In this document: positions 78 through 29,239 of the stretch, one piece after another
Numbering within the stretch: position 1 is the first letter of the stretch
How the letters are laid out: each line of letters opens with the position of its first letter
Assembly: GCA_023898645.1 (NCBI GenBank)
Contig: CP060232.1
Location: forward strand, 390,001-422,000
Source of the DNA: Candidatus Saccharimonadota bacterium
Lineage (GTDB): Bacteria; Patescibacteriota; Saccharimonadia; Saccharimonadales; Saccharimonadaceae
DNA length: 32,000 nucleotides
Direction: 5' to 3'
Notes under the pieces: model-generated
The model's database searches: none
What the model was told of the DNA's origin: nothing
Seen by the model: only the letters and a program-made list of their open reading frames with translations
Translations under genes and position numbers: made by a program

Positions 78-680
78 ATGTCAAAAGGAATAATCTACTT
101 AATGTCCACCGCCGTATCTGGCCTGGTGAAGATTGGCAAAACTGGCACGGTCAATTATCCAGAACGAATGCGCTTCCTGGAGGCTAATGGATACTACAAC
201 GTTGCGGGCTTACGACGCTATTTCGCTATCGAGCTTGAAGATTATGACGATAAAGAAAGTCTACTGCACGAAATTTTTAGCAAACACCAAGTTGGTACCA
301 GCGAGCTTTTTGCGTTAGACCAAGACCTAGTACGTCAATTGTTGCTATCATTTGATGGTAAAGTTATCTATCCTGAAAAAATCAACAAGGAAAAAGAGTT
401 CGACGAAGTGGCGACCGCCCGCAAGCAAGGTGCGTTATTCAGCTTTTACCGTAAAGGTTTGCAAGACGGTGACGAAATCAACTTTATATCTGATAAATCT
501 ATTATCGCAACCGTCAGCGGAGAGCGAGAAGTTGAGTACGGCGGTCAAGTATGGAAGTTGTCACCACTAACATACAAGATTTTCGAGGATAAGGGGCAGC
601 TAAACAGTAGCGGCGCCTATCAGGGTGCAAACTATTGGCAATTCAATAATCACAAACTAAAAGATTTGCCTGATAAGTAG
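78..680 (+). CDS. GIY-YIG nuclease family protein, T5orf172/MUG113 type, with an extra C-terminal domain
   Basis: The N-terminus reads GIIYLM...GLVKIGKT...ERMRFLE...ESLLHEIFSKHQVGTSELFAL. This matches the T5orf172 pattern (IY..., KIGxT, R, E..lH..f, EwF/ELF). A Shine-Dalgarno GGAGGA lies upstream. Confidence 0.7.
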   Translation: MSKGIIYLMSTAVSGLVKIGKTGTVNYPERMRFLEANGYYNVAGLRRYFAIELEDYDDKESLLHEIFSKHQVGTSELFALDQDLVRQLLLSFDGKVIYPEKINKEKEFDEVATARKQGALFSFYRKGLQDGDEINFISDKSIIATVSGEREVEYGGQVWKLSPLTYKIFEDKGQLNSSGAYQGANYWQFNNHKLKDLPDK

Positions 681-3617: not shown

Positions 3618-4247
3618 ATGACAATCAAACCATATATAGCGGCGGTTGCCGCAGTCTCTTCGCTTGCGCTTTTTTTCGGCCAGACCGCTCATGCGCAGGC
3701 GCCTAACTTCATTGGTAGTCCGTCTAACTTTAATCCTGGCAATCAGTTGCCTGCGCCCGGTTCGAGAGTTCAGCCACGAGGCGGGTTTCCGCCGCAGCAG
3801 GTTCAATATCGAGTTAGGGTCAATGAAAGGATTCAGTACAGCGAAAGGCATAGCTGGACATATAGCGAACGTCGTACGGACGACACTCAGCGTCAGCACA
3901 GGGCGGCTAGGCCGGCGGCTCCTAGGTCTAGTAATTTGTATATAAATGGCCAGTGTACTTGGTACGCAAAAAAGCGTCGACCTGATTTGCCGAATGGGCT
4001 CGGAAATGCAAATACTTGGTATGCGCGGGCGGCAGCCAAAGGCTATAAAGTCGGTTCGTCTCCTCGTGTAGGTGCAATAGGGGCGACGTCACAAGGAGCA
4101 CTTGGACATGTCGTATATGTCGAGTCGGTCCATAGAAACGGTACGATTACTGTTTCTGAAATGAATTACAACGGAGGCGTTGGCAAGGTCCACACACGCA
4201 CCGTCGCGGCAACTCAGTTTAAGTATATCTACAGAAGCGTCGCCTAG
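3618..4247 (+). CDS. secreted CHAP-domain peptidoglycan hydrolase (amidase/endopeptidase)
   Basis: A signal peptide MTIKPYIAAVAAVSSLALFFGQTAHAQA is followed by a low-complexity P/Q/R linker. The CHAP domain carries catalytic Cys (NGQCTWYAKK) and His (GHVVYVESV) motifs. Shine-Dalgarno TAAGGAG lies upstream. Confidence 0.8.
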   Translation: MTIKPYIAAVAAVSSLALFFGQTAHAQAPNFIGSPSNFNPGNQLPAPGSRVQPRGGFPPQQVQYRVRVNERIQYSERHSWTYSERRTDDTQRQHRAARPAAPRSSNLYINGQCTWYAKKRRPDLPNGLGNANTWYARAAAKGYKVGSSPRVGAIGATSQGALGHVVYVESVHRNGTITVSEMNYNGGVGKVHTRTVAATQFKYIYRSVA

Positions 4248-19952: not shown

Positions 19953-20681
19953 ATGCTTATGGATAAGCATATAGCAATTACTGCAGACGGTTTAATCGTA
20001 CAGAAAGACAGAAAAACCATACTCGACAAATTAACCTTTGAAGTACCCCGAGGTTCAATTACGGGCTTGATCGGTCCAAGCGGAAGCGGTAAAACAACAT
20101 TGATGCGAACGATTGTTGGCGTACAAAAATCAACCAAAGGTGACCTGATGGTACTTGGTCAGGACGCCGGTAGCCGTAAATTACGCAGTTCCATCGGTTA
20201 CGTCACACAGAGTCCAGCCGTGTACGGCGATTTAACGGTGTTGCAAAACCTTTATTATTTCGGTGCACTAGCGCACGCGAGTCATAAGCAAATAGATCAG
20301 ATTATTAAGAACGTACGATTGAAAGATCAACGCAATCAGATTGTCGATAGTTTGTCTGGCGGACAGCGCGCGCGCGTAAGTCTGGCGGTCGCTCTCCTTG
20401 GTGACCCTGACCTATATATATTTGACGAACCGACTGTAGGTTTGGACCCGGTTTTGCGCAACGAGCTATGGAACATGTTTAAGCAGATGGCGGTTGCGGG
20501 TAAGACGTTACTTATTTCGAGTCATGTCATGGACGAAGCCGACCGATGTGAAAATTTAATGTTGCTTCGTGACGGCAAGCTCCTTTGGAATGATACCCGC
20601 GAGGCTTTGCTTCATAAAACCAAGAAAGACTCTGTCGGAGATGCGTTTATTGCCATGATTGAGCGAAGGGAGAACGACTGA
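19953..20681 (+). CDS. ABC transporter ATP-binding protein (ABC-2/DrrA-like exporter subunit)
   Basis: It has Walker A GPSGSGKTT, the signature LSGGQRARV and Walker B LYIFDEPTVGLD. Confidence 0.9.
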   Translation: MLMDKHIAITADGLIVQKDRKTILDKLTFEVPRGSITGLIGPSGSGKTTLMRTIVGVQKSTKGDLMVLGQDAGSRKLRSSIGYVTQSPAVYGDLTVLQNLYYFGALAHASHKQIDQIIKNVRLKDQRNQIVDSLSGGQRARVSLAVALLGDPDLYIFDEPTVGLDPVLRNELWNMFKQMAVAGKTLLISSHVMDEADRCENLMLLRDGKLLWNDTREALLHKTKKDSVGDAFIAMIERREND

Positions 20682-21421
20682 TGTACCACGTTAAAGCGAC
20701 ATTTGCGACAACGTTACGAATTTTACGCCAGCTTTCTCATGATCGTCGGACAATAGCGCTCATATTCCTCGTTCCTTGTATTTTGTTGGGGATATTGCGC
20801 TGGCTATACGATGGCAACCTAATGATATTTGATCAAATTGCACCTGCGCTATTGGGCATTTTCCCATTTGTCATCATGTTTATTATCACGTCGATTACGA
20901 CATTACGTGAGCGAACAGGTGGTACCATGGAGCGCTTGATGGTTTCGTCTATTGGCAAGTTGGATCTCGTGCTTGGTTACGTGTTTGCGTTTGGTCTTCT
21001 TGCTGCCGTCCAGGCGCTACTTGCAAGTACGTTAGTATTGTATGGTCTTGGGCTGGACATTGCTGGTCCGCACTGGTTCTTAATCGTAATGGCTATGGTT
21101 GACGCACTACTTGGGACTGCGCTCGGTGTATTTGTCAGCGCATTTGCAAAGACAGAATTTCAGGCAATTCAGTTCATGCCAGCATTGATACTCCCTCAGT
21201 TCCTTATATGCGGGCTACTTATGCCTCTGGATAAGATGCCAAGCTTACTCGAGACTATTGCTTACTTTTTGCCACTGACGTACGCAGTTGATGCGCTCAA
21301 CACGGTCGTTCATAATGTCGATATTACTAATGACGCCTGGCGTGACCTTTGGGTCGTCGCGGCCTTTGCTGTTGGTGCGATTTTGCTTGGCGCGTTGACT
21401 CTTCGTCGTCGGACGAAATAG
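20681..21421 (+). CDS. ABC-2 type transporter permease
   Basis: A TGATG overlap couples it to the ATPase gene. It has six TM helices and the size and position typical of ABC-2 permeases. Confidence 0.8.
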   Translation: MYHVKATFATTLRILRQLSHDRRTIALIFLVPCILLGILRWLYDGNLMIFDQIAPALLGIFPFVIMFIITSITTLRERTGGTMERLMVSSIGKLDLVLGYVFAFGLLAAVQALLASTLVLYGLGLDIAGPHWFLIVMAMVDALLGTALGVFVSAFAKTEFQAIQFMPALILPQFLICGLLMPLDKMPSLLETIAYFLPLTYAVDALNTVVHNVDITNDAWRDLWVVAAFAVGAILLGALTLRRRTK

Positions 21422-21857: not shown

Positions 21858-23369
21858 TTATTTGGTGGTTGCGACTTTTTTGCCGCGTCCGAAGAAGATG
21901 TACTCCCTCGAATCCAGTTTGCGCACAGCGCGTCGATACGCACCGGTGTGGCCAGGCCACAACACGCGGTTTTTGCCATGTTCGTCGAAGTACCAGCTTG
22001 TACAACCGCCAGTATTCTGAACGGTATGGTCAAGCTCGTGCTGCACCCAGTCGTTGTAAGCGGCTTGCGCATTTTTGGTGGGTGACAGTGCCGCTGCTTT
22101 TCGCTTGTCGACCGCTCTAATTGCCTGGACGACGTAATCGATCTGAGCTTCGATCATGATGACGACCGAGTTGTGCCCCAGACCAGTGTTCGGGCCGAGT
22201 AGGAAAAACAGATTAGGCATATCCGCAACGGTGATACCCCGATGCGCGTCCATGCCAGTCTTATTCCACATATCGACCAGATTATTACCGCCGCCGCCGA
22301 CAATCGTCCCCATGTAGCGGTATGAATCCGCAACGTGGAATCCGGTAGCCCAGACGATGATGTCGACCTCGTGCAACGTTTCTTTGCCGGCATTGTCTTT
22401 GGTGATGATGCCGTTTTCGGTAACGCTGACGATTGAATCAGTGGTTACATCCGCCTTCGGACTGTTGAGGGCCTCATAGAAGCCAACGGCAAATCCGATT
22501 CGTTTGCATCCGGCTGAGTAGCTCGGCGTAAGCTTGCGACGTAATTCTGGGTCGGAAATTTTCCGATTGATGTCGCGTTTCCCTAGGAACTCGATAACCT
22601 TTAGCAACTGCAGATGCTTGGTCATGCCTTCACCGATGGACTCTTGCCACAGGTGAATGCCGAGACGGGTTGCCATGCGAGTGCCGGGAATCCATTTGAA
22701 ACCAAGTTGCGCCAGTCGCGGAATCTTCCAGTCGGGTCGAGTGACGACCCAGGCGGGAGTACGCTGGAACAATGTAAGCTTATCGACTTTGTCGATGATG
22801 CCCGGTACCACTTGAATTGCACTTGCGCCAGTACCGACAACAGCGACACGCTTACCTTCGAGGCTAACGCTACTGTCCCATTCCGCAGTATGAAACTGGG
22901 CTCCCTGGAACGATTGACGTCCAGGAATGTCAGGAACTGACGGAACATGCAGAGCGCCTACGCCCGAAACGACGAACTGTGCGACATACTCACGGTCATC
23001 TTCGGTAGAGACGTGCCAGCGGAACTCGGCCTCATTCCACACGACTTGTACGACCTTCGATCCAAACACAGTATGTTCACGCAGGCGGTGCTTGTCGGCT
23101 ACGGATACCAGATACTTCTGGATTTCCGCGCCAGGAGCCCACATGCGAGACCAGTTGGGATTCGGTTCGAAGGAAAACGAGTAGAGGTGGGCGGGAACGT
23201 CGCAGGCGATGCCCGGGTAGACGTTGTCTCGCCAGGTACCTCCGAATTCGTGTGCTTTCTCAAGAATTACGAAATCGTTGATGCCGGCTTTTTGCAGCTT
23301 GATGCCCATACCGATACCAGAAAACCCGGTGCCAATGATTAGCACACGTGTTTCGACTATTGTTGACAT
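21858..23369 (-). CDS. type I Baeyer-Villiger / flavin-containing monooxygenase (EthA-like, class B flavoprotein)
   Basis: The FAD fold is IIGTGFSGIG, followed by FGGTW. The BVMO fingerprint FxGxxxHxxxW[PD] is present as FQGAQFHTAEWD. A second dinucleotide fold is VAVVGTGASAIQ. Confidence 0.85.
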   Translation of the reverse strand: MSTIVETRVLIIGTGFSGIGMGIKLQKAGINDFVILEKAHEFGGTWRDNVYPGIACDVPAHLYSFSFEPNPNWSRMWAPGAEIQKYLVSVADKHRLREHTVFGSKVVQVVWNEAEFRWHVSTEDDREYVAQFVVSGVGALHVPSVPDIPGRQSFQGAQFHTAEWDSSVSLEGKRVAVVGTGASAIQVVPGIIDKVDKLTLFQRTPAWVVTRPDWKIPRLAQLGFKWIPGTRMATRLGIHLWQESIGEGMTKHLQLLKVIEFLGKRDINRKISDPELRRKLTPSYSAGCKRIGFAVGFYEALNSPKADVTTDSIVSVTENGIITKDNAGKETLHEVDIIVWATGFHVADSYRYMGTIVGGGGNNLVDMWNKTGMDAHRGITVADMPNLFFLLGPNTGLGHNSVVIMIEAQIDYVVQAIRAVDKRKAAALSPTKNAQAAYNDWVQHELDHTVQNTGGCTSWYFDEHGKNRVLWPGHTGAYRRAVRKLDSREYIFFGRGKKVATTK

Positions 23370-24002: not shown

Positions 24003-27000
24003 CTAGAAGTAGGTGGTGATGACAACACAGCCATCTGCGCCTTTGCCGCCCGCACCAGAGTTGTATCCGTTGTCAGACGCCCCACCGCCACCGCCACCTG
24101 CGTTGTGGTTGGTTGCGTCACCTCCGTTGCCGCCGTTAGTCGCGGTCTTATACGCCCCACCGCCACCGCCAATCCCTGGCAGGCCAGGTATGACCGGATA
24201 GTAAGAGGTGTTGGTAGTAGCATCCATTGTCGAGGTGCCGTTGCCTGGGGAGACGAAAGTGCCAGACAGGCTGCGTACAGCGAAGATCGACGCTGCACCG
24301 CCTCCAGCCGCCGATGATGTAGAGCTCGCCGCCGCCCCGCCACCGCCGCCGCCGCCACCGCCAACGTAGGTCGCGTTCGAGCCTATGCTCCCGTTGCTAT
24401 TGTTACCCGCTCCACCGGCACCGCCTGCAAACTGGGTGTTGACGGCACCTCCGCCACCTGCGACAGTTGTTCCAGTACTACCACCCAGCCCGCCGTAACC
24501 CGGATTGGCGTTAAAGTTGAGCGTGGATATATACGAAATTTCGAGGTTGCTAACGCGAGTTGAGTGATAACTTCTTCCACCGACCATTCCGTCCGTGTCA
24601 TCCGTAGTGACGGGCAGACCACCGTAGGCTCCGGCGGGGACACTGACGAACATCGCGGTGTCGGGCACATCCGACGCAGGAACAGTGACTTCTTGCCACC
24701 CCCCGCCACCGCCACCACCGCCGCCGGTACGGTTTGACGTGGTGGCTCGCCTCGCACCAGAACCGCCACCACCGCCTGGACCGCATAATGTGAACTTCAC
24801 TGAAACAGCGCCAGACGGCTTCGTCCACGTCTGGAGTTTAAATACGTTTCCGTAGGGCCGCACGGTTGCAGGAGCTATATCAGCGGTGCTTCTGGCAAAA
24901 GTAAACGTGGTGGCTGTTGGAATCGAGGTGATAGTCACCGAGGTAACTAGGTTTAACTCGATTGCAGAATCAATGCCGTTAATCCAAACCTTGTCGCCAA
25001 CCTGATAGCCGTGTGCCGTGAGCGTAGTAAGAGTCACTACGTTTGAGGACACTTGCTTATCGGTGACGTAGTTCGCGCCCAGCGGGGTGAATACATCGAC
25101 CTGGGCTTGCTTAGCAATCCCAGCGGGGGTGCCCGTAATCGTAGGACTCACCAACGTCTTGTTCGATAGTGACTGTGTGCCGGTGGTGGTTACTACATCT
25201 ACGCCGTTGGCCTGTACAGTGCCAGTACCCTTCGTCTTCAGGTTTAAACTAACGTTATCGTCACCAACCCCCGTCGAGGAAGTAGCAGTAATATATGGAG
25301 CCTGTCCTAGCGCAGCAGATGCTCCGATTAAATAATTGGGGCCGAGAGGATAGATTGTCATTCCCGGCGTACCAGCTGTGTTCGACAAACCAATCGGACT
25401 GCTGCCCTTTGATTTTAGACCCAGCGAAACATCGGTTGCACCAAATAGGCTATTCGCAAAAAGATTGGTCGCACTGGCCGTTCGATTAATCTGCAAATGG
25501 GCGAGAGACGCTCCGTTTGACTCTAAGTATATGGCCGTGCCCCCATCCTCTGCTGCAATCTGCCGAACCTTCGGAGTGGTGAGCGTCTTATTAGTAAGGG
25601 TCTGAGCGCCACTTGTTGTAACTACCTCAACACCGTTAGCCTGAACAACTCCGGTACCTTTGGGGAGTAGATTGAGATTGTGATTTGCATCTTGACCGTC
25701 TGCTTTGATTGTTGGTGTTTGGCCGGTGGTTACATAGAACATCAGACTGCCCGAACCTTTGGGGTTGATCTGCAAGTCGATATTAGAATCTGCTCCGTCA
25801 ACTAGCAGATATGGATTAAGTCCCGTTCCCCTATTGGCGAGGCGTAAGTAGTTGACCGCACTAGGATAAGTGGCAAGAGACAGTAGCGTGTTGCCACTGG
25901 TATCAAGAATTGAGGTTCCGATTTTTGGACTAACGAGAGTTTTGTTGGTAAAGGTTTGAGAATCACTGATAGTTGCCGCATCGACACTATTAATTTTTAC
26001 AGTACCAGTGCCTTTGGTAGTTATATTGAGGTTTTTATTGGTATCATCCCCAATCGCAGCAATGGTTGGTGTACCGCCAGTTGTAGCATATACCGATAGT
26101 TTGCCAGTTGCAGATACGACACCGTCGGAAGAGACGTTATTTACCGTTCCGGTAGGAGTTGCTGATTGCCAAGTTGCACCGTCATTGTAGACCGGCAATG
26201 AAGCGCCGTTGCCACAAAATCGGCTTAATTCGTATATAGCATATTGGCCATAGTTTGTTGGCTTTCGCATCCAGAGCTCTGCGTCTGACGTCCATCCTCC
26301 GGAGATCACTTTGAACGCATCTGCGGGGAAGTTGTACTGAGGCGCCATAGAGTCGGTGCAAGATAGTATCTTTACTCCAACTGCAGGGTTAGTGCCGGAA
26401 TGTGAGCGCAAGAATGCTAGAATTGTCGCCGAAGCACCGTACGCGCCGTATCCAGCAACGACTTGCAGTACAACCTGAACATCGCGATATACTCCGCTAC
26501 CCGTTGAAAATGTAGCAATCTTTGTCCATGTATTCGGTCCATCTTCTGGGCCTGTAGAGCCGTATACTGTAGTAACCACAAGTCGAGACGCGTCTGGGAG
26601 GGACGAGGCGGGAATATTAGTAATGGTGTTGTTTGACCCAGAAATTGTCTTATTTGTGAGGGTTTGTGTGCCCGAAACAGTCAGGACGTCTACTCCATTG
26701 GCCCTTACAGTACCTGTGCCTTGCGTCGTGAGGTTTAGGTTTGTATTTGGCGCCGTAGAAGTAGCACTAATAGCCATTTCGGTCTGTCCGGTCTCGCCGT
26801 ACAGACGCAGAGGGCCCGAGCCCTTTGGAATAAGCGTTACACCAATATTGGCATCGGCGCCAACGGTTTGAATCAACGGATACGCTCCAGTATATCTATT
26901 TGTTATCTGCAAATAATTGACGGCGTTCGCAGCAGGAGACAGCGACAGGATTGTGTTATTATTTGTATCTTTGATTGTACTTACTTTGGGATCGGTCAAC

Positions 27001-27350
27001 GTCTTATTCGTCAACGTCGCCGTCGCCGCGTTCTTCGTCGCATCACTGGTGTTGTCGACCTGATCAAGACCGACATCGGTCTTGGTGAGGGAGACAGCAC
27101 CTGTTTTGGCGGCAACGCTCGTGACAGGGGCGGTGGCATTGAGCTTGGTTTGAACAGCTGTATCGAGCAATGTTTCGGTGATAGATCCGTCGGCAATAGA
27201 AATAGAGTCGATGGCATTAGGTGCAATAGCGTCGCTCGTGACACTGTCTGTTTTTAGCTTGCCGTCGGGGGCGTGAATCTGCTCCAAGAAGTTATTGAGG
27301 ATACTACCCCAATTGCCCGTGTCGCCGCCCGGTGTTGGGAGCCGAGCCAT
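24003..27350 (-). CDS. 1115-aa phage-tail-fibre-like protein: fibre-type N-terminus, TLTNKT-delimited repeat modules, inserted globular domain, C-terminal glycine-rich domain
   Basis: This is a single uninterrupted ORF. The N-terminus reads MARLPTPGGDTGNWGSILNNFL...KTGAVSLTKTDVGLDQVDNTSDATK. The motif [TS][LF][TS]NKT[LI] occurs five times. The C-terminal part reads WTKPSGAVSVKFTLCGPGGGGGSG, followed by several poly-Gly runs. No signal peptide is present. The CDS call is firm and the function is inferred. Confidence 0.85.
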   Translation of the reverse strand: MARLPTPGGDTGNWGSILNNFLEQIHAPDGKLKTDSVTSDAIAPNAIDSISIADGSITETLLDTAVQTKLNATAPVTSVAAKTGAVSLTKTDVGLDQVDNTSDATKNAATATLTNKTLTDPKVSTIKDTNNNTILSLSPAANAVNYLQITNRYTGAYPLIQTVGADANIGVTLIPKGSGPLRLYGETGQTEMAISATSTAPNTNLNLTTQGTGTVRANGVDVLTVSGTQTLTNKTISGSNNTITNIPASSLPDASRLVVTTVYGSTGPEDGPNTWTKIATFSTGSGVYRDVQVVLQVVAGYGAYGASATILAFLRSHSGTNPAVGVKILSCTDSMAPQYNFPADAFKVISGGWTSDAELWMRKPTNYGQYAIYELSRFCGNGASLPVYNDGATWQSATPTGTVNNVSSDGVVSATGKLSVYATTGGTPTIAAIGDDTNKNLNITTKGTGTVKINSVDAATISDSQTFTNKTLVSPKIGTSILDTSGNTLLSLATYPSAVNYLRLANRGTGLNPYLLVDGADSNIDLQINPKGSGSLMFYVTTGQTPTIKADGQDANHNLNLLPKGTGVVQANGVEVVTTSGAQTLTNKTLTTPKVRQIAAEDGGTAIYLESNGASLAHLQINRTASATNLFANSLFGATDVSLGLKSKGSSPIGLSNTAGTPGMTIYPLGPNYLIGASAALGQAPYITATSSTGVGDDNVSLNLKTKGTGTVQANGVDVVTTTGTQSLSNKTLVSPTITGTPAGIAKQAQVDVFTPLGANYVTDKQVSSNVVTLTTLTAHGYQVGDKVWINGIDSAIELNLVTSVTITSIPTATTFTFARSTADIAPATVRPYGNVFKLQTWTKPSGAVSVKFTLCGPGGGGGSGARRATTSNRTGGGGGGGGGWQEVTVPASDVPDTAMFVSVPAGAYGGLPVTTDDTDGMVGGRSYHSTRVSNLEISYISTLNFNANPGYGGLGGSTGTTVAGGGGAVNTQFAGGAGGAGNNSNGSIGSNATYVGGGGGGGGGAAASSTSSAAGGGAASIFAVRSLSGTFVSPGNGTSTMDATTNTSYYPVIPGLPGIGGGGGAYKTATNGGNGGDATNHNAGGGGGGASDNGYNSGAGGKGADGCVVITTYF
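25146..26099 (-). repeat. fibre repeat half-module plus modules B and C (aa 418-735) of the large protein
   Basis: The half-module spans aa 418-472. Module B spans aa 466-590 (125 aa). Module C is degenerate and longer, spanning aa 584-735. All end in xTxxxSxTFTNKTL / TLTNKTL / SLSNKTL. Confidence 0.75.
26643..27017 (-). repeat. fibre repeat module A (aa 112-236, 125 aa) of the large protein
   Basis: It is bounded by TLTNKTL and TLTNKTI. It aligns without gaps to module B, sharing AVNYLxxxNR, GADxNIxxxxxPKGSG, NLNL and KGTGxVxANGV. Confidence 0.8.
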
Positions 27351-27577
27351 TTACATAGTCCCTCTCGGGGCGTCACGAGAAACAGCATCCGCTGCACCGG
27401 TCGCCAGGTTTTTCAGAATTATGTCCATCCTTACTCTTAAAACCATATACCCCAACAAAACTATTGAACGTTGTAAATTCTCCCTACATTGTAATATGTT
27501 TATGGTATATATTGCAATTCATAAACTGGGTGTCAAATGCTGGTAAGCATCTATGGGTTTTTGGATTGAAAATAAAC

Positions 27578-27603
27578 AAACCCGCGCATCGGGGCGCGGG
27601 TTT
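27578..27603. terminator. hairpin terminator immediately 3' of tRNA-Ala (minus strand)
   Basis: The stem is aaacccgcgc/gcgcgggttt with loop atcggg. On the minus strand it is followed by TTTGTTTATTTT. Confidence 0.7.
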
Positions 27604-27617
27604 GGAATTGATGATTT

Positions 27618-27694
27618 TGGTGGAGCATATCGGATTCGAACCGATGACCTCTTCCATGCCATGGAAGCGCGCTAGCCAACTGCGCCAATGCCCC
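27618..27694 (-). tRNA. tRNA-Ala (anticodon GGC), CCA encoded
   Basis: I folded the reverse complement. The acceptor is GGGGCAT/ATGCTCC and carries the G3:U70 alanine identity pair. The anticodon stem-loop is CTTCC-ATGGCAT-GGAAG, the T arm is ATCGG-TTCGAAT-CCGAT, and the 3' end is ACCA. Confidence 0.9.
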
Positions 27695-27833: not shown

Positions 27834-28376
27834 CTAGTCACGTAGTCGAGTTGCGTGTGCTAGGTTTACCGAGCCCAAGAAGAGCGCGTAAAGACCGAGC
27901 AACCAAACGAAGTCCATGACTCCTACTACTGGGTAACGCCAGAGCCATATACCGGCGACAACGCCGACTACGCCTGATACTACCCACATGAGCCGATGTT
28001 CGCTCGAGACGCTGTGAAACGCCGATACGAACAAGTCGCCCACACCACGAGCAAGAGCTAGCGCACCTACTGTGACGAGGAACGTTGCTTGACTCATGTC
28101 TGGGTTACGAACCAGATACACGCCGACACCCAGCATTACAACACCGACCAGTAGTGAAAACCACCAGGAAGTGTTTATGCCGAGATCACGGAAACCGTGC
28201 ACCAGCTCTACGACGCCGACTACAACTACGTAGACGGCAAACCATGATACGAGGCTCGCTAGTGTGAGCCCTGGGAAGAACAATGCAATAACCCCGAACG
28301 CTACGGTTGCGAGACCTTGCAAAACGAACAGTCCAAAAACGTGACTGTCCACATACTCATTAACGTTAGTACTCAT
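27834..28376 (-). CDS. HdeD/DUF308 family membrane protein
   Basis: It has six TM helices with the repeated pattern GLATVAFGVIALFFPG...VGVVELVHGF...LLVGVVMLGVGVYLV, typical of DUF308. Confidence 0.8.
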   Translation of the reverse strand: MSTNVNEYVDSHVFGLFVLQGLATVAFGVIALFFPGLTLASLVSWFAVYVVVVGVVELVHGFRDLGINTSWWFSLLVGVVMLGVGVYLVRNPDMSQATFLVTVGALALARGVGDLFVSAFHSVSSEHRLMWVVSGVVGVVAGIWLWRYPVVGVMDFVWLLGLYALFLGSVNLAHATRLRD

Positions 28377-28485
28377 TTTCCCTCCATTTGCCTTGTAATT
28401 ACAGGTATACTCCTAATGTTTAAAAAATACAACAAAAAAATTTAGAAAATATGTTATACAGCGTGGCGAAAAGATGCCGTAAATA

Positions 28486-28517
28486 AAAACCGCTCAGATA
28501 TGAGCGGGTTTTATTTT
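28486..28517 (+). terminator. orphan Rho-independent terminator with no annotated gene upstream on the plus strand
   Basis: The stem is aaaaccgctc/gagcgg(g)tttt (a 6-bp GC core with an A:T extension and one bulge), followed by TTTTATTTT. The only thing upstream on this strand is about 100 nt of intergenic DNA. Confidence 0.6.
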
Positions 28518-28831
28518 GCTGTTGCGCGCCCACCCGGGGCAGGGTTTTACGTGGTTGTGTTTGTTTTTGCCGCGCAAACGGGTTGCCCCAAATTGCGCAC
28601 CAGCACTATATGCAGTATGACTCATTTTTCAAGGAAGCGCAAGCATCTTAAGCCATTACTCATGTTTAGTGTGTTGCTGCTTTAACGTACTAAACAAACA
28701 TAAAAAATAAGAGAGATATGACATGTGCAATTTTATAGCACAGTACGTTTATGTAAGTGGTTCACGGCTGTCTCTTTGTCGTGCTGGATGTTATAATTAA
28801 GTCGAATATATATCTAAGCCAGGGGAAGACA

Positions 28832-29239
28832 ATGGAATCTCATTTTGAGTGGCAACAAGCTACCGATGCCATTACTGAATTCGATGACGTGTTAGACGAT
28901 GGTTTTGATTTGGTCGAAGACCGCAAAGTTCGGCATCTCATTGAAGATGCTCTCAAGAAAGGCGAACACTACAAGGCTGCGCGAATTGCCAAAGATATGC
29001 GCGAGGCGTTGATGGAGCATACTATCAGAAAGCGTATATTCTCAGTCGCGGAGGCAGCTGGCGGCAAAATAGGAATCGAGCGTCTCATGAATAGTGTCTG
29101 TGAAACCGAGGGCGAGTCCGCCATGAATGCTACGCTATGCTTGGTGTATATCATGCAAGCCGAGGGCAAGATGTCTATCTATGCAGCGGAAACAAGTGAT
29201 GAAATTATTGTTGAACTTCTCCGACGACGCCGTCGATAA
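28832..29239 (+). CDS. hypothetical acidic protein (135 aa) ending in RRRRR
   Basis: The ATG at 28832 is preceded by GGGGAAG about 5 nt upstream. I preferred it to the track's GTG at 28757, whose first 25 codons are AT-rich and noncoding in appearance. I recognised no motif. Confidence 0.55.
   Translation: MESHFEWQQATDAITEFDDVLDDGFDLVEDRKVRHLIEDALKKGEHYKAARIAKDMREALMEHTIRKRIFSVAEAAGGKIGIERLMNSVCETEGESAMNATLCLVYIMQAEGKMSIYAAETSDEIIVELLRRRRR

Follow-up and report, generated by a model that had tools for sequence, protein, structure and literature searches.

The window analysed here is a 32,000-nucleotide stretch of a Saccharimonadia chromosome, and its gene H6797_02000 (24003..27350, minus strand) encodes a protein of 1115 residues (P0001) that consists of an N-terminal module, a shaft of repeats, and a glycine-rich tip. 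Each of these three parts is homologous to modules of phage tail proteins. However, unlike the fibre genes of virions, the gene lies outside any phage structural gene module in the window. It belongs to a multi-copy family, and the family loci vary in presence and absence between related genomes. We see about an even chance that the protein is a host-recognition fibre deployed by the cell, one member of a large modular family whose module pool is common to the phages of its host.

According to this model, the Saccharimonadia cell itself, and not a virion, would deploy a long, probably trimeric fibre to bind its actinobacterial host. The conserved N-terminal module (N-module) would dock to a partner in the cell envelope or the export machinery. 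Through junctions carrying an NKT motif, it would be connected with shaft repeats, which vary in number between members, and with interchangeable tips. In the window protein, the tip is a "brush" domain that would touch the lipid-rich actinobacterial envelope, as is presumed for the tail tips of mycobacteriophages. The modules would be drawn from a pool held in common with the host phages and swapped by recombination at the conserved junctions. We infer the trimeric state, the surface location, the binding to the host, and a mycolic-acid-type actinobacterium as the target; judged from the sequence, a role as adhesin or host-recognition device, a position at the surface, and export of the protein are plausible.

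Modules of the fibre protein and their actinophage counterparts

The gene is an intact open reading frame (ORF) with an ATG start and, as had been claimed, the largest in the window; all features given below are on its minus strand. The N-module (26997..27350; residues 1-118) starts with a near-invariant head, M-RLP-PG-D-G-WG-ILN--L (residues 1-30), in which PTPGGDTGNWGSILNNFL occupies residues 5-22. It also carries short "AIAPNAV/IADGSIT" repeats and a "KTGAVSLTKTDVGLDQVDNTSDATKNAATATLTNKTL" box of VDNTSD type, and KTGAVSLTKTDVGLDQVDNTSDATK occupies residues 81-105. Anchoring or docking is proposed as its role. The first unit of the shaft (26643..26996; residues 119-236) ends with TLTNKTI, and its core has a predicted local distance difference test score (pLDDT) of ~80-85. 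It is followed by an inserted β-sandwich domain ("RLVVTTVYGSTGPEDGPNTWTKIATFS..."; 26136..26642; residues 237-405; pLDDT ~90), which is also present in the homologues P0003, P0004, P0005, and P0006. Further shaft units (25149..26135; residues 406-734) carry TFTNKTL at residue 466, TLTNKTL at residue 584, and SLSNKTL at residue 728. The protein has four T[LF]TNKT[LI] junctions, at residues 112, 230, 466, and 584, in addition to the SLSNKTL junction, and the period of the DNA repeat, 354 nucleotides (118 residues), matches the spacing of the junctions. The tip cassette is composed of a small β-barrel at its head ("QAQVDVFTPLGANYVTDKQV...HGYQVGDKVWINGI"; 24816..25148; residues 735-845), which showed a weak E1_FCCH-like match and is included in the free-standing homologues P0121-P0125 (69-71% identity; see below), and the polyglycine-rich brush domain (24006..24815; residues 846-1115), the proposed receptor-binding tip. 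Glycine accounts for 27-30% of the last ~270 residues. The N-terminal and VDNTSD motifs, the TLTNKTL-delimited repeats, and the glycine-rich end described in the original prediction are therefore all present.

The tip (residues 736-1115) was modelled with AlphaFold2 as a monomer from an alignment of 40 sequences, with a pLDDT of 83.6 and a predicted template modelling score (pTM) of 0.81. By DSSP, most of this model is neither helix nor strand, as expected for a brush domain. The model of residues 1-745, also a monomer, was moderate (pLDDT 71, pTM 0.38). The repeat cores and the β-sandwich (residues 255-405) are confident, residues 475-570 have a pLDDT of 85-92, and residues 610-735 are of low confidence. 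In the Protein Data Bank (PDB), this model gave weak partial matches (E 3e-4 to 0.1), all of which were tailspike or fibre proteins, the tailspike-like enzyme WceF, and T4 gp9. A search of the PDB by sequence yielded chance-level matches to β-trefoils only.

The C-terminal region matched Pfam family PF21722 (Gly_rich_2) over residues 840-1113 with 51 bits, against a gathering threshold of 24.3 (E 2.5e-13), and PHROG 754, "minor tail protein" (E 4e-13). In a Foldseek search with the tip model, the best match in the PDB was the tail tip of mycobacteriophage Bxb1 (9D93, chains Qa and Qb; E 5.6e-10 and 1.3e-8; template modelling score 0.65 on the target; 26% identity), and a cyanophage fibre ranked next. 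In addition, 218 predicted viral structures, including minor tail proteins of Mycobacterium phages, matched the tip at E<=1e-3. PHROG and Foldseek, profile and structure checks of the kind that had been proposed, both gave tail-protein matches, and the glycine-rich end is of the actinophage minor-tail kind for which it had been taken.

Polyglycine-rich brush domains are found on mycobacteriophage tail tips (Bxb1 gp33, the "tail wing brush"), where they are presumed to contact the lipid envelope and are described as tail-tip anti-receptors (PMC13243192, PMC13243795, PMC13252515, PMC12646305). The likeness of the fibre protein to these brush domains lies in the Pfam threshold, the superposition on 9D93, and the distal position of the domain. 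The difference is that the phage domains belong to tail-module proteins, whereas here the domain forms the end of an 1115-residue protein encoded on a Saccharibacterium chromosome. The same idea of glycine-rich receptor recognition is seen at the fibre tip of Salmonella phage S16, where gp38 forms a polyglycine-II sandwich that has been linked to the Bxb1 brush domains (PMC13243192). This likeness comes from the literature, and gp38 was not among the top 50 PDB matches of the tip model.

When the last 368 residues alone were used as the query, free-standing homologues of 375-410 residues (P0121-P0125) were found, which are 65-71% identical to the tip cassette over the whole length. P0124 (69% identity over 375 residues) is encoded on a metagenomic contig of 121 kb with a GC content of 0.67 (L005; ERZ15185856 NODE_41). 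Its gene belongs to a fibre-gene block immediately downstream of the genes for a cement protein and a major capsid protein. The capsid protein is 91% identical to that of Bixzunavirus, and other genes of the block match the PHROG annotations "head decoration", "tail fiber", and "minor tail protein". Bixzunaviruses are a group of ~155-kb phages of Mycobacterium smegmatis, and the cultured ones contain neither the fibre block nor the tip cassette. Three proteins of this Bixzunavirus-like (Cluster C-type) block share modules with three paralogues of the Saccharimonadia genome. Besides P0124, a 418-residue fibre protein is 47-48% identical in its residues 83-228 to the repeat units of the window protein, and a 1315-residue protein is 43-47% identical to a proximal region of ~320 residues in P0005 and P0002, the two paralogues described below. 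In the phage block, however, the modules are distributed among several shorter genes whose products have other N-termini ("MARTEVTG...", "MSSKWVDANG..."), and the GC content at third codon positions (GC3) is 0.92, compared with ~0.6 in the window gene. The other free-standing copies of the tip are on contigs with a GC content of 0.59-0.66, one of which (L111) carries Sipho_Gp37, Gp77, Gp80, and HNH genes; two others (L006 and L112) show no phage-diagnostic annotation.

A tip that is 69% identical to a phage-borne protein may share its receptor. The protein might then be secreted or released as a decoy or competitor, which would bind the host receptor of actinophages and change phage adsorption instead of anchoring the cell, and would thereby protect the food source of the episymbiont or compete for attachment sites. 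Saccharibacteria have been reported to alter how susceptible their hosts are to phages and to serve as phage sinks (PMC13578794; Zhong et al. 2024). However, a soluble blocker would need neither a conserved N-module nor a long shaft, the fibre has no secretion signal, and the reported protection works otherwise, by down-regulation of the receptor and by binding of phages to the surface of the episymbiont. A decoy function thus seems quite unlikely.

The other two module types also have counterparts in actinophages. The 30-residue VDNTSD box matched 383 cultured-phage records at 73-82% identity, ~92% of which were from actinophages (Mycobacterium, 201; Gordonia, 73; Arthrobacter, 72; and others); the annotated ones were "minor tail protein". 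In these minor tail proteins, which share ...TKxDVGLxxVDNTSD... and include those of Curtobacterium phages, the likeness is confined to the box. The N-terminal head of ~33 residues was found at the start of proteins on 22 IMG/VR viral contigs, with GC contents of 0.34-0.70. On L094, one of these contigs, the N-module gene comes immediately after the gene for the tape-measure protein, and its product has a PHROG "tail spike" match (E 3e-13). Against cultured phages, the N-module gave weak matches, all of them in Streptomyces phages. A tblastn search of the full-length protein against cultured phages gave no match at E<=1e-5; that the module queries match where the full-length query fails is consistent with the scaling of E-values with query length. 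Taken together, the counterparts of all three module types bear out the claimed likeness to a phage tail fibre of actinophage type.

The GC3 value was 0.62 in the N-module, 0.57-0.62 in the tip, and 0.44 in the shaft, compared with 0.50 in the housekeeping genes and 0.92 in the phage copy of the tip; the GC content of the window is 0.47. This means that the tip is largely at the composition of the genome in which it resides and far from the phage copy, so that any transfer was not recent. Recent import from a high-GC phage is not supported by these values, and neither is a one-off recent domestication.

The N-module family in Saccharibacteria

Two paralogues are encoded on the same contig. P0002 (H6797_00830) is 80% identical to the fibre protein over the N-module and 71% identical over residues 530-975, and P0005 (H6797_03785) is 57% identical over the N-module. 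The term "orphan", which had been applied to the gene, is therefore correct in that no prophage surrounds it, but not in the sense of a gene without relatives, since it has these two paralogues and a large family. The family was defined here by the box M-x-R-L-P-x-P-G-x-D-x-G-x-W-G-x-[IV]-L-N-x-x-L at residue 1, which the fibre protein possesses. Across 21 members, including the window protein (row 1 of the alignment), 13 columns are invariant. A genome scan with the first 72 residues, using one genome per species, gave at least 567 confirmed stretches. Among the best 80 of these, almost all were from Saccharibacteria/Saccharimonadia, complete chromosomes included, with up to 8 or more N-module loci per metagenome-assembled genome (MAG).

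When a profile of the N-module was searched against 1.84 billion representatives, 21,833 matches were obtained, a number that is not the size of the family, because most of it stems from the short repeat at profile positions 29-72, present in as many as 64 copies per giant protein. This repeat of residues ~29-72 ("..AVT..A.IADGSIT..") was found in up to 64 copies in metagenomic proteins of 1,000-5,600 residues (P0241-P0388), which look like a separate, very large class.

The proteins of the family range from 173 to 1278 residues, and their ends are very diverse; NKT repeats occur in a minority. Among the top 120 homologues, a small set of alternative N-termini is combined in many ways with C-termini that recur between proteins. 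The C-termini of the family include lectin-like, β-helix, and SGNH-like ends. By eye, the proteins of L012, L048, L081, and L085 end in "DGxHPxxxGH", a motif of the SGNH/GDSL-esterase type. Such an end would be an enzymatic, perhaps receptor-modifying, tip in place of a binding tip.

N-module genes were also seen on high-GC (0.61-0.67) contigs assigned to Actinobacteria: L019 (NZ_PDCP01000104.1, Mycolicibacterium agri CCUG37673), L074 (a Pseudonocardiales MAG), and L085 (a Solirubrobacteraceae MAG). In L074, the order is a large serine recombinase gene, tatA, a short ORF with a twin-arginine motif (RR-ORF, described below), a pilin-like gene, and the gene of a 910-residue N-module protein. These contigs could represent mobile elements or prophages of the hosts, or could be mis-binned or contaminant sequences.

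The neighbourhood of the family was analysed within +/-10 kb of 78 genome loci. The loci of the homologues, like that of the window, are set among housekeeping genes, and tandem copies of the family are present at 19 of the 78. No gene family for secretion, chaperone, tail, capsid, or integrase functions was recurrent near these loci. A 158-residue protein without a Pfam match ("MPF[ST]GTG...SKWNN...") is encoded directly downstream of short N-module genes (320-430 residues) at at least 10 loci (L021, 9508-9984; L070, 10973-11443; also L022, L023, L024, L032, L033, L050, L059, L060, and L083). The protein might act as a chaperone of the fibre or form its second subunit; its gene is not next to the fibre gene of the window.

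These data bear on the idea that the proteins of the family are interchangeable fibres of a phage-derived particle (a tailocin, a particle like a gene transfer agent, or a defective prophage) encoded elsewhere in the genome. The N-module would then dock on the baseplate of the particle, and the paralogues would be alternative target specificities. The N-module does head tail proteins on the viral contigs, with the copy in L094 directly after the tape-measure gene, the PDB matches of the N-terminal model are tailspikes, fibres, and T4 gp9, and virion proteins normally have no signal peptide. Fibres of tailocins and of R- and F-type pyocins are likewise phage-derived, receptor-binding, and chromosomal, with swappable tips, but they are encoded within a complete tail gene cluster, whereas no tail genes are present at the loci inspected here. 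Neither in the window nor recurrently near the 78 loci was a tail, sheath, baseplate, or capsid gene found. Furthermore, in genomes of only ~1 Mb, as many as 8 or more genes of the family are dispersed between housekeeping genes, and a literature search for such particles found none. A particle of this type is thus considered unlikely, and a fibre deployed by the cell itself is the reading followed below.

Chromosomal setting of the fibre gene

The upstream boundary of the variable spot is tRNA-Ala(ggc) (27618-27694, minus strand), which lies outside the gene. The tRNA and the start codon are on the same strand and 267 nucleotides apart, so the gene is directly downstream of the tRNA, as had been stated. 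A strong terminator directly after the tRNA (27604-27577, minus) closes it off, and the fibre gene therefore has its own upstream region (27351..27617, minus; 267 nucleotides, against a claimed ~260). The signals in this region are consensus matches only. A promoter scan gave TTGCAA-18-TACAAT (27517-27488, minus) as the best site, and a GAGAGGG box resembling a Shine-Dalgarno sequence is ~10 nucleotides before the ATG. The TTGACA hexamer that had been proposed as the -35 box is indeed present at 27531-27536 (minus). However, the scan prefers the other site, and the hexamer is not above chance: it occurs 13 times in the window against 19 expected, that is, without enrichment.

The neighbouring genes are housekeeping genes, encoding an RRM protein, an FMO-like monooxygenase, a PGPGW protein, an ABC transporter, LigA, a DUF308 protein, and a Mur ligase. 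No capsid, portal, terminase, tape-measure, or integrase gene was found anywhere in the window, and direct repeats occur only inside the fibre gene, with none of att type around it. The features that mark a prophage or mobile element are thus absent from these 32 kb, in agreement with the claim of non-phage surroundings. A tRNA-linked island was considered and ruled out, as there is no flanking att-like repeat and tRNA adjacency is not typical of the family.

Could the gene nevertheless be a common tail gene of a prophage, or a remnant in decay, without a present cellular function? The modules are of phage type throughout, a tRNA adjoins, the paralogue P0002 looks frameshifted, and the GC3 of the N-module and tip is modestly raised. 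On the other hand, the ORF of 1115 codons is intact and has its own upstream region, the 32 kb contain no phage genes or att repeats, and adjacency to a tRNA is not a trait of the family (~4 of 46 loci, against ~1.6 expected). The size of the family, its conserved N-terminus, and the multiple copies found throughout the class point to selection. This explanation is therefore largely refuted, and we regard it as very improbable.

The source is a 1.13-Mb MAG contig labelled "Candidatus Nomurabacteria bacterium" at the NCBI. Nevertheless, it shares gene order with two Saccharimonadia genomes. In L063 (Ca. Microsaccharimonas), ligA, the PGPGW and RRM genes, tRNA-Ala(ggc), and murF correspond to those of the window, at 53-77% amino acid identity, and the stretch from ligA through tRNA-Leu to tRNA-Cys is common to the window and L023 (a Saccharimonadales MAG). 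On these grounds, the source genome belongs in Saccharimonadia, and the claim of an episymbiont-type genome stands despite the label. The comparison between sister genomes, another of the proposed checks, showed that the RRM gene and tRNA-Ala are ~400 nucleotides apart in L063, without a fibre gene between them and with the tRNA inverted relative to the backbone. In L023, a different member of the family lies beside tRNA-Cys, where the window has none. This means that the family loci vary in presence and absence.

Also missing from the syntenic stretch of L063 are the ABC transporter pair (19953-21421), the FMO-like gene (21858-23369), and the DUF308 gene with a hypothetical gene (27834-29239), so that the neighbourhood of the fibre gene is a variable region. 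The GC3 of the FMO-like gene is 0.605, compared with the housekeeping average of 0.50.

Two further genes of the window should be mentioned. A 200-residue protein (78-680, plus strand), encoded 23 kb from the fibre gene, has a weak match to T5orf172 (E 4e-5, just above threshold). This domain is common in phages and mobile elements, and the match is the only one in the window with a mobile-element flavour. A 209-residue protein (3618-4247, plus) clearly begins with a signal peptide (MTIKPYIAAVAAVSSLALFFGQTAHAQ), contains a CHAP peptidoglycan-hydrolase domain (E 4e-19), and is a candidate secreted enzyme against the host wall; homologues are present in L056 and L063.

Possible routes of export and a proposed role in host recognition

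Several points weigh against a cell-deployed recognition fibre, the first of which is export. The fibre protein has no signal peptide, transmembrane segment, LPXTG motif, or twin-arginine motif. The lack of a signal peptide, which had been predicted, was judged from a Kyte-Doolittle hydropathy calculation and not from SignalP: the highest 19-residue mean is -0.17 within the first 30 residues and 1.44 in the whole protein, with no segment resembling a transmembrane one. With only one Arg and no hydrophobic stretch, the N-terminus (MARLPTPGGD) is not a twin-arginine signal; the C-terminus, ...GADGCVVITTYF, contains no LPXTG sorting signal. Secondly, the N-module was poorly predicted (pLDDT 50-72), and in phages it belongs to tail proteins, so that it may need a partner of phage type. 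Thirdly, the essential adhesins known in cultivated Saccharibacteria, as named by a transposon sequencing (Tn-seq) study of Southlakia, are other proteins: type IV pili and VCBS, dockerin, and FN3 proteins. Finally, P0002 looks frameshifted, and among the matches listed only P0001 and P0002, both from one genome, join this chassis to the brush cassette, so that the function may be lineage-specific or recent. P0002 tracks the window protein to "...GGGGAVNTQFA", continues in another frame ("VPVERATLATGA"), and then stops. The out-of-frame peptide corresponds to an ORF inside the window gene (compare 24383-24772, minus). P0002 is either a real frameshifted pseudogene or the product of a long-read indel in a run of Gly codons.

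As an addition to the model of a cell-deployed fibre, which concerns export only, the family might be exported in a folded state by the twin-arginine translocation (Tat) system, riding on a protein of ~50 residues that may remain as a membrane anchor. Tat is a system that exports folded proteins. The candidate carrier is the RR-ORF, which has the motif M-[DN]-R-[RK]-x-F-L-[KRQ], a hydrophobic stretch of ~20 residues, and a GYGGSAYGG-like tail, and gave no Pfam match. It was found in L021 (7704-7916), L031 (9621-9854), L074 (8971-9210), and L108 (6001-6234), and also in L009, L019, L080, and L045. Where tatC/tatA is present, the RR-ORF always follows directly, and it is often directly before an N-module gene. 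In a six-frame motif scan of 1.23 Mb of loci, all six TatA motifs and all seven RR-ORFs were <=2.5 kb upstream of an N-module gene on the same strand, a count that is biased since the scanned loci had been picked around N-module genes. The identity of TatA and TatC was confirmed with Pfam. The order is tatA, tatC, RR-ORF, and N-module gene in L021, L031, and L070. In L045, tatC and an opposite-strand ORF are followed by tatA, the RR-ORF, and two N-module genes. L074 shows a variant order of tatA, RR-ORF, pilin-like gene, and N-module gene. Pairs of RR-ORF and N-module gene also occur in other contexts in L009, L019, L074, and L080, and the adjacency was seen at eight loci in all.

The reciprocal test did not favour this route. 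In L108-L110, the order is murJ, lepA, tatA, tatC, RR-ORF, and hrcA, with no N-module gene. Conversely, L084 has an N-module gene in the lepA-hrcA interval without tatAC, and the window has neither an RR-ORF nor a tat gene near the fibre gene. The patchy occurrence of Tat in Saccharibacteria (PMC6031116) also counts against the route. From the counter-examples of L084 and L108-L110, the adjacency of the tat and N-module genes may reflect only a shared hot spot for insertion. The idea of Tat-linked export is therefore largely weakened, and it is given little weight here.

The interval between lepA, with tatAC, and hrcA-grpE-dnaK is filled in L021, L045, L070, and L084, where it holds one to several N-module genes and the gene of a GDPD-domain protein, and it has no N-module gene in L108-L110. 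The interval thus looks like a hot spot at which members of the N-module family insert. Just upstream of tatA, a divergent ORF of 72-91 residues was also observed (L021, 6131-6349; L031, 8011-8244; L045, 8189-8437; L070, 7774-8049; L108, 4380-4598; all minus). It contains the motif "...YNCNAYGAGGY..." and ends like a sortase signal, with L[AT]NTG, a hydrophobic stretch, and a basic tail.

Cultivated Saccharibacteria grow on Actinobacteria and need adhesins (PMC10633639). The known attachment machinery, type IV pili and the VCBS, dockerin, and FN3 proteins, has the same presumed job as the fibre family but is unrelated to it and, unlike it, has recognised export signals or machinery; the papers on this machinery do not mention the N-module family (PMC10633639, PMC11623550). 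No paper linking Saccharibacteria or Patescibacteria with tail-fibre-like proteins was found in the literature, and the papers searched gave no description of the N-module family. A prophage of the host was reported in 2026 to bind TM7x and, to a limited extent, to infect it (PMC13578794). Binding of a host actinophage to a Saccharibacterium provides a physical route for gene exchange. More tentatively, and with somewhat less confidence than we place in the fibre itself, we suggest that a single pool of exchangeable anchors, shafts, and tips serves both the episymbionts and the phages that infect their hosts, and that the tips might predict the hosts of uncultured Saccharibacteria.

If a fibre of this type is deployed by the cell, the episymbiont would locate its host by means of a cell-mounted equivalent of a phage tail fibre. 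Export would then be a puzzle, since the fibre would be folded and lack a signal peptide, and the secretion repertoire of the cell is minimal. Such a fibre would also document gene flow between phages and an episymbiont that use the same host surface. Apart from the part played by type IV pili, little is known of the way in which ultrasmall episymbionts recognise their specific hosts, and a large, hypervariable chromosomal family built of actinophage-fibre modules offers concrete candidates for the recognition device. Furthermore, the hosts of almost all uncultured Saccharibacteria are unknown. The tips could be read in the manner of phage receptor-binding proteins, and matching them to phages of known host may allow these hosts to be inferred; in the present case, the tip would point to a mycolic-acid-containing actinobacterium from activated sludge.

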